From a virus (Duplodnaviria > Caudoviricetes): DNA of 64,000 nucleotides. A program made the position numbers and the translations under genes. The first letter of the stretch is position 1. Each line of letters starts with the position of its first letter. The notes under the pieces are model-generated. The model saw only the letters and a program-made list of their open reading frames with translations. It made no database searches and was not told where the DNA came from. Shown piece after piece: positions 39,688 through 58,919 of this stretch. The DNA lies in the IMG/VR virus record IMGVR_UViG_3300020048_000009, positions 32,001-96,000 of that record; one strand, given 5' to 3'.

Positions 39688-39723
39688 AAGTGTAGCTGAA
39701 ATAGTATAATATATTCTTTTATA

Positions 39724-39847
39724 GGGACAGATGGTTGGTGCCATTTGGCATATTTATTCATATAATATGTCTAACCTATTTATATTTTTGATAAATAAAA
39801 TAGAGGTTACACCAATAACCTCTTTAAAATAAAGGTAAAACAATATG
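39724..39847 (+). ncRNA. kissing-loop endonuclease-leader cassette copy A
   Basis: H1 loop TTGGTG (39735-40) complementary to H3 loop CACCAA (39810-15). Confidence 0.75.
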
Positions 39848-40699
39848 ATTAATGAATTAAATACTATACATAAATTATGTGATTGTGGCTGTGGTAAAGA
39901 AGTTTCTATAAATAGAGATACCAAAAAGCCTAATAAAGTTATTAGGGGACATACATCAATAGCGATTAGAAAGAAATTAGCAGAATCGCATACTGGGAAA
40001 AAATTCTCAGAAGAACATAAAACAAATTTAGCACTTTCACATAAATGTAAAGAAACACAACAAAAGCTAAAAGATACCAATATAAAAAAATATGGTGTCG
40101 AAAGCCCAATGCAATCGCCTATTCTTAGAGAGAATCATAAAAAGGCATGTTTAAAAAACCTAGGATATAATACACCACGAGAATCCGCTCTGGTTAAAGA
40201 AAAGCATAATAAAACATGTATAGAGAAGTATGGGGTAGATAATTGGGCTAAATCAATAGATGGTCGCAAATTTGCTAGGGTTAATAGAATAAAGGTAATT
40301 GAAGTTCAGAAACTAAATGGTGAGCCTTTAAGCCCATGTATAGGTATAAAAGAAAGAGAATGCTTAAATGAATTACAACCCCATATTTCATTTAATATCA
40401 TTAGGAACGATCACTCCTTTAAAAAATTAACTGGAAGATTTCCAGATGGTCATATCAAAGAACTTAAATTATTTATACAATTTGATGAGCGGCACCATTT
40501 CATAGATAAAGAAATGTTAATATATAAAGAACAAGATATTCGATGTACTAAAGATTTAGAATCAATACCTGGTTATACGGTTTTTAGAATTTCAGAAAGA
40601 GAATGGTTAGACAATAAACAAAAGGTTATAATAGATTTTAAAAATATATGTAAACAGTGTACATTACCACAAAGCATGTCTGAAAATAATTTTAACTAA
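39845..40699 (+). CDS. free-standing endonuclease (NUMOD3 plus Vsr/DUF559-like nuclease)
   Basis: CDCGCG, GKKFSEEHK..L, PDG.I.EL...IQFDE.HH..D..Y.VFRI. Confidence 0.8.
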   Translation: MINELNTIHKLCDCGCGKEVSINRDTKKPNKVIRGHTSIAIRKKLAESHTGKKFSEEHKTNLALSHKCKETQQKLKDTNIKKYGVESPMQSPILRENHKKACLKNLGYNTPRESALVKEKHNKTCIEKYGVDNWAKSIDGRKFARVNRIKVIEVQKLNGEPLSPCIGIKERECLNELQPHISFNIIRNDHSFKKLTGRFPDGHIKELKLFIQFDERHHFIDKEMLIYKEQDIRCTKDLESIPGYTVFRISEREWLDNKQKVIIDFKNICKQCTLPQSMSENNFN

Positions 40700-52127: not shown

Positions 52128-52220
52128 TATTTTATATACGAAAGTAATATATTCTAAAACCGGTACTTTCTTTTCAAATATGTATACCGGCTTTAATAAA
52201 TAAAATTAAAGGAATATATT

Positions 52221-52946
52221 ATGAATACAGTAATTTGTCCAATATGTGGAAAAGAATACAAACAATTAATAGCACAACATATTTTTAAACACGGTTTGAC
52301 TATTGAAGAATTTAAACTTAAATTTCCAGATTTTTATTTAGGTAGTCCGGGTATTGAAAGTACTAGAAAAGAAAAAATGGTACTTCAATATGAAAAAGAT
52401 AATATACGATGTAAACATTGTAATAAATTAATAACATCACCAAATAGAAAACATAGAATCTTTTGTAGTACTTTATGTAAAGCTACTTATTATTCTTTTA
52501 ACAAAGAGCTTGTTCAAACAAAAGGAAAACATTTTAAAAAAATCTGTTGTGCATGTAATAAAGAATATAAAGCCTTTAGAGATAATTCTAAATTTTGTTC
52601 TAATAAATGTCAACAAGAATATATTAATGTTCAAAAAATTAAAGAATGGAAAGACGCCACAGAACAGGGAAAACCTTTTCCCTATAGAAAATGGATAAGA
52701 CATTATCTTTTTAAAAAATATGATAACAAATGCTGTAAATGTGGGTGGAGTAAGATTAATCCTTTTACAGGAAATGTTCCTTTAGAACTTGAACATATTG
52801 ATGGTAATTCAAATAACAATAAAGAAGAAAATTTAGAATTGTTATGTCCCTGTTGTCATGCCTTAACTTCCACATATAAGGGTGCAAATAGAGGTAATGG
52901 AAGATTCTCTAGAAGACAAAGATACCAAGAAGGTAAATCTTATTAA
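52221..52946 (+). CDS. HNH homing endonuclease with Cys-rich N-terminus
   Basis: CCKCGW...LELEHIDGN..NN..ENL.LLCPCCH. Confidence 0.9.
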   Translation: MNTVICPICGKEYKQLIAQHIFKHGLTIEEFKLKFPDFYLGSPGIESTRKEKMVLQYEKDNIRCKHCNKLITSPNRKHRIFCSTLCKATYYSFNKELVQTKGKHFKKICCACNKEYKAFRDNSKFCSNKCQQEYINVQKIKEWKDATEQGKPFPYRKWIRHYLFKKYDNKCCKCGWSKINPFTGNVPLELEHIDGNSNNNKEENLELLCPCCHALTSTYKGANRGNGRFSRRQRYQEGKSY

Positions 52947-54332: not shown

Positions 54333-54417
54333 TTTTAGCTAAGAGTAGTAAATATTTAATTTACTTATATATTTAAGCTGCGCTTTTAATAAATAAAATT
54401 AAGGGTATAACTTAAAT

Positions 54418-54924
54418 ATGAAAAATAAATGTCATAAATGTAATGTAGATATTCCAAACAGGGTTAAAATAGATAACTGTTGGAAAACAATTAACCATAG
54501 AAAATTTTGTTTAATCTGTTCACCGTGGGGTAAACATAATACTAAAAGCGTGGATCCTTCTAAAAGAACGCTTTCAGAAAAAGAAAGACATTCCTGGAAA
54601 AATTTAACAGATAAACAAAAAACATGTCATAAAACATCACAACATAAGAGAGCCGTTAAGCGTAAGGTTGAACTTATTAATATGCGAGGTGGGAAGTGTG
54701 AAAGATGTGGTTATGATAAATGTATTGATGTATTTCATTTTCATCATATAGATCCATCGTTAAAAACCATGAACATGGGATTAAATTCTCTATGGTGTAA
54801 ATCATGGGAAAAGATTTTACAGGAATTTGAAAATTGTAAAGTATATTGTTCTAATTGCCACATGGAAGTGCATTATGAATTAAAAAATCCTGATAATAAA
54901 CAATGTACTTTAATTTCAAAATAA
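54418..54924 (+). CDS. HNH endonuclease
   Basis: GGKCERCGYDKC..VFHFHH.DP...C.VYCSNCH.E.H. Confidence 0.88.
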   Translation: MKNKCHKCNVDIPNRVKIDNCWKTINHRKFCLICSPWGKHNTKSVDPSKRTLSEKERHSWKNLTDKQKTCHKTSQHKRAVKRKVELINMRGGKCERCGYDKCIDVFHFHHIDPSLKTMNMGLNSLWCKSWEKILQEFENCKVYCSNCHMEVHYELKNPDNKQCTLISK

Positions 54925-55354: not shown

Positions 55355-55429
55355 AGTAGAGTAGGCAAGTGGTAATCCGCCTCCCTGTTAAGGAGGACAG
55401 CGCTGGTTCGATCCCAGCCTCTACTGCCA
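55355..55429 (+). tRNA. tRNA-Asn(GTT)
   Basis: loop CTGTTAA, G73. Confidence 0.88.
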
Positions 55430-55433
55430 CTTT

Positions 55434-55558
55434 GGGAACAGATGGTTAGCGCCATTTGGCATATTTATTCATGTAGTATGCCTAACCCATTTATATTTTT
55501 GATAAATAAAATAGAGGTTACGCTAAGAACCTCTTTAAAATAAAGGTAAAATAATATG
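55434..55558 (+). ncRNA. kissing-loop endonuclease-leader cassette copy B
   Basis: H1 loop TTAGCG (55446-51) complementary to H3 loop CGCTAA (55521-26). Confidence 0.75.
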
Positions 55559-56236
55559 ATTAATAAATTAGATGAATCATGGAAGCAAGTAAACGGTTTA
55601 TATAAATGTCCAATATGTAGTAAAGAGTATTCTAAAAAAGGAATTTGTTCGCATATCTTTAGATCACATACAAAAGACGGTAAATATAATTCTTTTAAAG
55701 ATAATAACAGATTATATACTTCATCGTGGAATAAAGGTTTAATAAAAGAAACAGATCTTAGAATCAAGAAATCTGGTGAGAAACTTAAAGAAAGTCTTAA
55801 CTCTGGTAAAGTAATACCACCACAAACAGGAAAACCTATTGCTCCTGAAATAAAAGCTAAAATATCCAATACGATGAAGATTGCTCATAAAGAAGGAAGA
55901 GCGTGGAATATTGGAAAGTCTAGATGGAATAACAAAGCTTCATATCCAGAAGAATTCTTTATGAAGGTTATTGAAAATGAATTTGAGGATAAGAATTATA
56001 TAAGAGAATTTAATGTTGGTATTTATTCTATAGATTTTGCATGGACCGATAAAAAGTTAGCTATAGAAATAGACGGACAACAGCATAAACGATTTGAAGA
56101 ATATAAACAGAGAGATCTTCGGAAAGATGAATGTTTATTAGAGAATGGATGGAAAGTTCTAAGAATTTTATGGATTGATATGTATAAGGATCCACACAAG
56201 TGGATTAAAATTGCTAAAGATTTTATACATAATTAA
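55556..56236 (+). CDS. free-standing endonuclease (zinc finger, NUMOD3, DUF559-like)
   Basis: CPIC..H...H; K.KISNTMK; YSIDFAW..KLAIEIDG.QH...D..L..NGWKVLRI. Confidence 0.88.
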   Translation: MINKLDESWKQVNGLYKCPICSKEYSKKGICSHIFRSHTKDGKYNSFKDNNRLYTSSWNKGLIKETDLRIKKSGEKLKESLNSGKVIPPQTGKPIAPEIKAKISNTMKIAHKEGRAWNIGKSRWNNKASYPEEFFMKVIENEFEDKNYIREFNVGIYSIDFAWTDKKLAIEIDGQQHKRFEEYKQRDLRKDECLLENGWKVLRILWIDMYKDPHKWIKIAKDFIHN

Positions 56237-56249
56237 GAATTTTATTAAT

Positions 56250-56325: not shown

Positions 56326-56363
56326 TTTTGATGTACAAGATCAGATAGACATGAGAATTTTAT

Positions 56364-56437
56364 TGCGCGGTTGAGGAGAGGCCCCTCTGCAGGCTCATAA
56401 CCTGCCTACGCCGGTTCGAATCCGGCCTGCGCAACCA
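56364..56437 (+). tRNA. tRNA-Met/Ile2(CAT)
   Basis: loop CTCATAA. Confidence 0.85.
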
Positions 56438-56679: not shown

Positions 56680-56690
56680 TTTTATTTTCT

Positions 56691-56778
56691 GGTAGTTTAT
56701 TCCGTAGGTAGTCTCGGGGCGCACTGTAAATGCGCTGGCTAATACCCTAAGGTAGTGCAACTCTATCAACTACCACCA
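56691..56778 (+). tRNA. tRNA-Tyr(GTA)
   Basis: loop CTGTAAA, long V-arm. Confidence 0.82.
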
Positions 56779-56789
56779 GCTTTAAATAA

Positions 56790-56923
56790 GGACAGATGGT
56801 TAGCGCCATTTGGATGTTTTTCATATGACACGCCTAACTTATTTAATTATTTTTTCATATTTTTTGATAAATAAAATAGAGGTTACGCTAAGAACCTCTT
56901 AAAAATAAAGGTAAAATAATATG
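56790..56923 (+). ncRNA. kissing-loop endonuclease-leader cassette copy C
   Basis: TTAGCG (56800-05) / CGCTAA (56886-91). Confidence 0.75.
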
Positions 56924-57457
56924 AGTAAAAAATTAATTGATCGCATCGGTGCTGATAAAATCATTGAAGTCTGCAAATCTGCAAAAACATTTAAAGAAGC
57001 ATGTGAAAAACTTAACTGTGGTTATAGATATTTAATGACAGCAGCCGTTGAATTAAATGTTTTCGATGAGTTAAAGTCTAGATCTAAAGAATTTGCACAT
57101 AAATTTAAAAAGGCTGATGGTTCAAGATTATGGTTGATTAAAACTAATACGGGACAAGGCTTTACATCATACAGAACTGATACTAAAATTTGGTGTGAAG
57201 AACTTTTTAAAGGAAATCATACATCAACCGCTGTTAGAATTAAAACACATTTAATTAATGCTGGGTATAAAGAAGATCATTGTGAATGCTGTGGTATTAA
57301 TGAATGGAACAATAAGCCAATAAGTTTACAATTACATCATATAGATGGAAATTCTAGAAACAATCAGTTAGATAATTTAAAAATTCTTTGTCCTAATTGT
57401 CACGTTCAAACAGATAATTATGGTTCTAAGAATGCTCGAAATAAAGAGCGCGAGTAA
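56921..57457 (+). CDS. HNH endonuclease with N-terminal HTH-like region
   Basis: CECCGI.EWN.KPI.LQLHHIDGN..NN.LDNL.ILCPNCH. Confidence 0.92.
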   Translation: MSKKLIDRIGADKIIEVCKSAKTFKEACEKLNCGYRYLMTAAVELNVFDELKSRSKEFAHKFKKADGSRLWLIKTNTGQGFTSYRTDTKIWCEELFKGNHTSTAVRIKTHLINAGYKEDHCECCGINEWNNKPISLQLHHIDGNSRNNQLDNLKILCPNCHVQTDNYGSKNARNKERE

Positions 57458-58858: not shown

Positions 58859-58919
58859 CATAATTCGATCCCACTATTTGATAAATAAAATAAATATCAA
58901 ATAGTGGGATCGAATTATG
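58859..58919 (+). promoter_or_regulatory. 25-bp perfect hairpin sequestering the start codon, with the late promoter at its apex
   Basis: CATAATTCGATCCCACTATTTGATA / TATCAAATAGTGGGATCGAATTATG. Confidence 0.85.

Follow-up and report, generated by a model that had tools for sequence, protein, structure and literature searches.

Our comparisons reveal a family of phage leader RNAs, located directly in front of genes for free-standing nucleases, whose covariation defines a three-way junction with two long-range loop pairings, one to a downstream hairpin and one to the ribosome binding site region of the following gene. We favor, as reasonably probable, a model whereby this leader is a cis-acting translational silencer that is bypassed by an internal promoter and travels with the mobile nuclease gene. 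The leader is described here from a window of 64,000 nt, to which all coordinates below refer unless a record is named; the window belongs to the 211,678-base (212-kb) genome of an aquatic phage with a G+C content of 30%.

Three copies of the leader, A (39717-39847), B (55430-55558) and C (56782-56923), can be aligned with one another across about 125-140 nt, and the 211,678-base record contains no others. Pattern searches with the H1 block and with the block formed by the box and H3 returned only these three matches in the window (chance expectation 0 to 0.18). Each copy is closed by the ATG of a nuclease gene on the plus strand, assigned by Pfam to DUF7487 behind copy A (284 aa, 39845..40699), to a DUF559/Vsr-like family behind copy B (226 aa, 55556..56236) and to HNH behind copy C (178 aa, 56921..57457). 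Homologs of the DUF7487 gene are called very-short-patch-repair endonucleases by some sources, and the HNH protein is 46% identical to a leader-borne HNH protein in L035. Pattern searches, alignment and Pfam therefore agree with the original prediction of three repeats at 39724, 55434 and 56790, each ending at a nuclease ATG; the repeats are real, but their true start lies a few bases earlier, at a closing stem, P1, that the prediction did not include. The parts that it did name, hairpin H1, a variable hairpin H2, the box GATAAATAAAATA and hairpin H3, are all found in copies A, B and C. H1 reads CAGATGG, a 6-nt loop and CCATTTG in the window copies, and H3 reads AGAGGTT, a loop and AACCTCT. 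The two loops are exact reverse complements, TTAGCG/CGCTAA in B and C and TTGGTG/CACCAA in A, with two compensatory double changes between A and B among a total of about ten A/B differences; H1 and H3 lie on the same strand, 60-75 nt apart.

Copy B illustrates the layout on the plus strand. The 5' arm of P1 (TGGG, 55433..55436) pairs with CCCA at 55486-55489 and is followed by the junction nucleotides AA (55437-55438). H1 (55439..55458) has a 7-bp stem that covaries in the family and the loop TTAGCG at 55446-55451, and H2 (55459..55481) has a loop at about 55465-55475 that is complementary to the AUG region, with CTAAC next at 55482-55486. The promoter-like box GATAAATAAAATA, a sequence associated with gene starts genome-wide, occupies 55501..55513 in the linker that separates the junction from H3; H3 itself spans 55513..55534 and has a loop core, CGCTAA (55521-55526), that matches the H1 loop in reverse complement. 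An A-rich motif, TAAAGGTAAAA (55541..55551; consensus UAAAG-NN-AAAA), doubles as the Shine-Dalgarno sequence in this copy. Copy A is annotated at 39721..39847 (plus strand, 69.4 bits with covariance model R1), with P1 at 39721-39725 and 39775-39779, H1 at 39728-39747 (loop TTGGTG, 39735-39740), H2 at 39748-39770, the box at 39790-39802, H3 at 39802-39823 (loop CACCAA, 39810-39815) and the ATG at 39845. Copy C is annotated at 56784..56923 (plus strand, 55 bits with R1), with P1 at 56784-56790 and 56838-56844, H1 at 56793-56812 (loop TTAGCG, 56800-56805), H2 at 56813-56833, the box at 56866-56878, H3 at 56878-56899 (loop CGCTAA, 56886-56891) and the ATG at 56921. The homology between copies A and B extends about 17 nt into the coding sequence (39845-39862 and 55556-55573, MINELN versus MINKLD), and the two proteins are otherwise unrelated.

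The family was extended by pattern scans of IMG/VR in which only parts of the H1 stem were fixed and loop complementarity was never demanded. It comprises at least 31 distinct copies on about 20 uncultured phage contigs, 28 of them beyond the window copies. Covariance model R1 was built from 10 copies, and it found more diverged copies with changed H1 stems in the same phage records; alignment A9 holds the 31 distinct copies. Two weak R1 matches in the L090 record (38-42 bits), with no clear H3 partner, were excluded from the counts. No leader was found by R1 in about 190 kb of unrelated loci or in 51 other HNH loci. As controls, H1-like chance matches in the first viral scan were followed by a complement inside 160 nt about as often as chance predicts, and none of 10 chance matches in bacterial genomes (for example in the FeoB coding sequence) had a complementary loop. 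A combined H1-to-H3 pattern carrying the H3 stem of this genome had no match in viral contigs, because H3 stems differ among phages. Searches of the region and of the leader against cultured phages with megablast and blastn gave no real match, tblastn with the DUF559 gene returned distant homing endonucleases only, a DNA-polymerase seed search found no relatives, and none of the RNA runs searched for the phage contained it. Rfam 15 reported only tRNAs in the window at gathering scores, and the leaders of four loci had no match at E values up to 1, hammerhead, twister, pistol, hatchet and riboswitch families included. The leader thus matches no described Rfam family, and literature searches returned no description of it.

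Covariation across the family defines the structure (A9). P1 joins the bases immediately 5' of GRACAG to those immediately 3' of CTAAC, so that, as judged from these comparisons, it closes H1 and H2 into a three-way junction whose joints, G-R-A and C-U-W-A, are short and conserved. A variable-length linker follows 3' of P1, and then come H3, UAAAG-NN-AAAA, the Shine-Dalgarno sequence and the ATG; the UAAAG-NN-AAAA motif 3' of H3 is nearly invariant in alignments A6 and A9. In A9, 94.6% of the cells are paired (28-47% in slid controls), 25 of the 32 pairs have changed on both sides, and the covariation score is 0.71 as observed versus 0.21 after shuffling, with none of 500 shuffles equaling the observed value. 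Pairing reaches 87% of cells in P1, 96% in H1, 97% in H2, 95% in H3 and 99.5% in the loop-loop helix, and changes on both sides affect six of the seven pairs of P1 and all five pairs of the H2 stem. The diverged copies show A-U to C-G and G.U to A.C exchanges in the H1 stem, and in the ortholog of copy A from a close relative (L152, a Logan contig) the H3 stem has U-A in place of G-C, a compensatory change.

The strongest pairing is the one between the loops of H1 and H3, which are perfect complements in 30 of the 31 distinct copies, the remaining copy having a mismatch. Twenty H1 loop sequences occur in the family, one of them in a 7-nt pair, and all six positions of the helix covary through Watson-Crick pairs only; the helix was left out of the covariance model, and the alignment is therefore unfitted to it. 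The kissing loop-loop interaction proposed from the three window copies is thus upheld, and the relatives show that loop complementarity is kept across homologs. A different rule governs the third H1 pair (55441 with 55456 in copy B), which is G.U in 22 copies and A.C in 8 and almost never Watson-Crick. G.U and A.C are isosteric wobble pairs, and the pattern hints that the shape of the helix is recognized by a tertiary contact or a factor. Together with the conserved junction nucleotides and the invariant A-rich motif, this exchange points to a particular tertiary fold or to binding of a factor, neither of which the silencer model needs. Three other readings of these segments were discarded: an extended H1-H3 duplex, as the flanks of the loops are not complementary; a role of CTAACC as an anti-Shine-Dalgarno sequence, as this segment is the 3' arm of P1 and P1 covaries; and a hammerhead-like reading of CAGAUGG, as its bases covary as a helix.

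The second long-range contact is made by H2, whose loop, as the complementarity statistics show, is predicted to pair with the gene that its own leader precedes, at the Shine-Dalgarno or AUG region. Compared with their own shuffled versions, hand-set H2 loops of 10 lineages bind the ribosome binding site better (Fisher p 1e-6), and loops set automatically by alignment columns give p 1.6e-14 over 31 copies that are not all independent, 14 of the 31 being individually below 0.05. The paired segment includes GGAG or AUG in nearly every copy, as in UGAACCU/AGGUUCA (L157), UUCUCC/GGAGAA (L164) and AUUCCA/UGGAAU, which spans the AUG (L272); the three window copies pair UCAUAU of the H2 loop with AUAUGA. 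In copies A and B the leader accordingly includes, by complementarity, the first codons of the gene, with which the H2 loop is predicted to pair. At 5-7 bp and -3 to -10 kcal/mol, the predicted duplexes are short, and many H2 loops are generic anti-Shine-Dalgarno sequences that would fit other copies too. The Shine-Dalgarno sequence lies outside every covarying stem. In the L245 copy, where the gene start has been lost, the complementarity between the H2 loop and the ribosome binding site has been lost as well.

The linker between the junction and H3 carries the box NATAAATA in all three window copies and in about three-quarters of the family, at a spacing of 2 to 10 nt from H3. The T4 late promoter is TATAAATA, and the box ATAAATAAAAT resembles it. 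In this genome the extended form (G/A)ATAAATAAAAT lies 5-70 nt before an ORF start at 23 of 31 sites, compared with 6% of random positions, whereas only 5 of 99 sites of the canonical TATAAATA precede genes; the promoter consensus therefore appears to differ from that of T4 at the first position. From PHROG scans the phage could not be assigned to the T4 family, and the label 'late' therefore stays an analogy. The box is also missing from the linker in a clade formed by L160, both copies of the L161 record, L163 and L283, for which promoter bypass cannot therefore be the on-switch. The late promoter of the original prediction thus stands as a box present in all three window copies, but it is absent from about one-quarter of the family, and its timing is borrowed from T4. 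When transcripts are folded from the box onward, H3 at most is predicted to form and the ribosome binding site is left open. Three other endonuclease genes of the same tRNA cluster, starting at 52221, 54418 and 58917, have a simple hairpin with the box ATAAATAAAAT in its loop before the ATG (52150-52223, 54370-54420 and 58865-58919); the first two hairpins hold the Shine-Dalgarno sequence in the 3' arm, and the 3' arm of the third stops right in front of the ATG. The classic T4-style layout thus occurs in this cluster beside the more complex leader.

The genes behind the leaders encode HNH, GIY-YIG (SegE-type), DUF559/Vsr-like, DUF7487 or NUMOD3-bearing proteins, all of the free-standing homing-endonuclease type. 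One leader type before unrelated nuclease families confirms that the module is portable, and its use by four such families speaks against the earlier suggestion that the nuclease itself binds the leader. Several leader-borne HNH and GIY-YIG genes are frameshifted or N-terminally truncated, the leaders before damaged genes being L234:1313-1625 (-), L240:2681-2793 (-), L243:1501-1700 (+) and L245:1501-1633 (-). A relative of the phage, represented by a 33.6-kb contig (run X6), joins position 55433, at tRNA-Asn, to position 56239, at tRNA-Lys, with 58 other letters between them. By this comparison, leader B and its gene (55434-56238) appear as a single 805-nt insertion that starts at the 5' arm of P1, and because the relative lacks this segment exactly from the 5' end of the leader, leader and gene move together. 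The same contig shows a further presence/absence difference in the tRNA cluster, the tRNA-Met stretch 56352-56434 being replaced by 417 other letters. The closest HNH homologs (L090 and L092) follow directly after a tRNA and have no leader; with the R1 search of the 51 HNH loci, this indicates that the leader is not obligatory for the HNH gene family. The same H1/H3 loop pair is found before different nuclease families, and, together with the leaderless HNH homologs, this indicates that the leader also recombines independently of the gene body.

The tRNA context varies among copies. Ten of the 22 leaders checked begin 2-12 nt past the 3' end of a called tRNA, and the other 12, copy A included, have no ARAGORN-called tRNA upstream. 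Copies B and C had both been described as lying just after a tRNA: copy B does follow tRNA-Asn(GTT) directly (55355..55429, plus strand; ARAGORN and Rfam tRNA), and the tRNA-like sequence before copy C escapes the tRNA finders. This tRNA-Tyr(GTA)-like sequence (56688-56781), directly 5' of copy C and called by neither ARAGORN nor Rfam, has acceptor ends, a GTA anticodon arm and a long variable arm, with a degenerate T arm. The orthologs of copy C in L035 and L237 lie behind called tRNA-Tyr genes.

In the silencer model, a read-through RNA from the tRNA operon or a neighboring gene would fold P1, H1 and H2 into the three-way junction. H3 lies about 22-25 nt ahead of the AUG; its loop and the H1 loop would meet in a 6-bp kissing helix, and the H2 loop would dock on the Shine-Dalgarno or AUG region. 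The double pseudoknot made by these two contacts would keep the ribosome binding site clamped and the nuclease untranslated. The box NATAAATA in the linker would, in most copies, start shorter transcripts that are devoid of H1 and H2, and with the ribosome binding site free these would be translated, while leader and gene would spread together as one insertion. Silencing in read-through transcripts, as originally predicted, finds a fitting layout here and an H2 loop that is anti-Shine-Dalgarno or anti-AUG; translational repression, like the activity and timing of the promoter, is what we infer from that layout. Against the model weigh the clade whose linkers have no box, the varying spacing of box and H3, and H2 duplexes that are short and in many cases generic.

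The same features can be read in other ways. The junction RNA, released for instance as a trailer of the tRNA operon or made separately, might act in trans by binding promoter-started nuclease mRNAs through both loop contacts, and the variable kissing sequence would then work like an address, much as plasmids control their copy number. The H3 loop and the Shine-Dalgarno site would still be available on transcripts from the internal promoter, the loops differ between most copies of one genome (A versus B and C, the two of the L161 record and the three of the L157 record), and such fast-evolving, strictly Watson-Crick loops resemble incompatibility determinants. However, an identical loop is shared by B and C, by two copies of the L052 record and by two of L281, and the codes are therefore not orthogonal; moreover, the partners lie on one strand of one transcript, which kinetically favors pairing in cis, and there is no evidence of a released small RNA, and we consider trans antisense action unlikely. 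A riboswitch-like sensor, whose junction core would recognize a small molecule, a tRNA or some protein of the phage or host, and whose loops would dock or not according to that binding, seems to us quite unlikely. It would fit the near invariance of G-R-A, C-U-W-A-C and UAAAG-NN-AAAA amid helices that all covary, the G.U/A.C switch at the third H1 pair, which is typical of a recognized helix shape, and the copies that have no box and need another on-switch. Most copies, however, came from pattern searches in which CTWAC and parts of H1 were fixed, so that conservation there is partly by construction, and neither Rfam, with no riboswitch match, nor the gene context points to a candidate ligand. 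Some version of these two ideas, in which the junction would be a sensor or trans-acting regulator whose core binds a factor or ligand and whose kissing hexamer gives each nuclease mRNA a private address, is a speculative possibility to which we give limited weight. If true, it would provide a same-strand phage analog of the antisense incompatibility codes of plasmids, or a new class of riboswitch or ribozyme tied to selfish nucleases.

RNA processing had been proposed as well, in the form of trimming of the tRNA trailer. More generally, the leader could be a self-cleaving ribozyme or a tRNA-like substrate of RNase P, E or III that cuts the nuclease mRNA from the upstream tRNA precursor and so spares tRNA maturation. 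The 10 of 22 leaders that begin 2-12 nt past a called tRNA and the tRNA-Tyr-like sequence before copy C are in line with this, small ribozymes often have pseudoknotted junction folds, and the H1 stem, kissing helix and H3 stem, if stacked, would measure about 20 bp, near an RNase III substrate. We nevertheless regard processing as very unlikely and find no support for the trailer proposal: 12 of the 22 leaders, copy A among them, have no ARAGORN-called tRNA upstream, no hammerhead, twister, pistol, hatchet or other Rfam family matches at E values up to 1, and the complementarity of the H2 loop to the Shine-Dalgarno sequence or AUG would be left unexplained. An element acting at the DNA level, with the hexamers as inverted-repeat protein sites, recombination ends of a mobile cassette or a nuclease operator, would account for the hexamers that flank the promoter box and for the behavior of leader and gene as one insertion, and I-TevI, which uses an operator to repress its own late promoter, offers a precedent (PMC2988022). 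Yet the 20 hexamer pairs keep their complementarity and not their sequence, which no sequence-specific protein explains, P1, H1, H2 and H3 covary as same-strand helices that include G.U pairs, meaningless in duplex DNA, and four unrelated nuclease families use the same leader. Gene conversion between inverted repeats cannot explain the 6-nt match either, since the stems of H1 and H3 differ. We hold action at the DNA level to be extremely improbable, and a silencer acting in cis remains our preferred reading.

Among the selfish genes of large phages, those for homing endonucleases are the most common, and to our knowledge only a handful of T4-type hairpins have so far shown how they are kept harmless. 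The silencer model offers a testable account, whereby a mobile gene would bring its own off-switch and land in foreign operons without ill-timed expression. With its unusually clean covariation, the leader could also readily be proposed as a new Rfam family, and its 20 loop variants form a natural set of orthogonal kissing pairs for RNA engineering.

Several known systems share part of this design. ColE1 RNA I/RNA II and R1 CopA/CopT are kissing-loop antisense controls of plasmids. As in the leader, recognition there is by fully Watson-Crick loop-loop pairing of 6-7 nt, and the loops diverge by compensatory change while the stems stay; unlike in the plasmids, the partners here lie on the same strand of the same transcript with no antisense gene, and the target is a ribosome binding site instead of a replication primer or leader peptide. 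SAM-II and preQ1-II/III are pseudoknots that hide the Shine-Dalgarno sequence, and the purine riboswitch is a three-way junction with loop-loop contacts. These riboswitches resemble the leader in being structured 5' leaders with loop-Shine-Dalgarno pairing and a conserved three-way-junction core, but the kissing partner here lies outside the junction, and no Rfam riboswitch matches. The PeSL cassettes of T4-type phages, which Arbiol et al. are said to have described in 2010, reportedly combine an early promoter with a single stem-loop and were proposed to mediate modular shuffling. Like the leader, they are short cassettes of promoter plus stem-loop repeated before unrelated genes; we know of no report linking them to a three-way junction, a kissing pair or homing endonucleases.

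The closest relatives in regulatory terms are the T4-type leaders, in which a simple hairpin over the ribosome binding site, combined with an internal late promoter, is documented for I-TevI, I-TevII, I-TevIII, segB and Aeh1 mobE (Edgell, Gibb and Belfort 2010, PMC2988022). Both sets of leaders precede selfish nuclease genes, often within tRNA clusters; in both, an RNA structure, predicted in our case, occludes the ribosome binding site in transcripts from upstream promoters. The putative promoter box of the present leader resembles the TATAAATA of those systems and, in about three-quarters of the copies, is sited so that transcripts started there would drop the inhibitory 5' part. The T4-type structure, however, is one local hairpin whose 3' arm contains the Shine-Dalgarno sequence, whereas the present leader combines a three-way junction with two long-range loop pairings, forms a conserved and alignable RNA family common to four nuclease families, and has no internal promoter in about one-quarter of its copies. 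Thus, the regulatory logic of an occluded ribosome binding site and an internal promoter is known, and what is new is the RNA architecture, a three-way junction with a double pseudoknot that recurs across phages and nuclease families.
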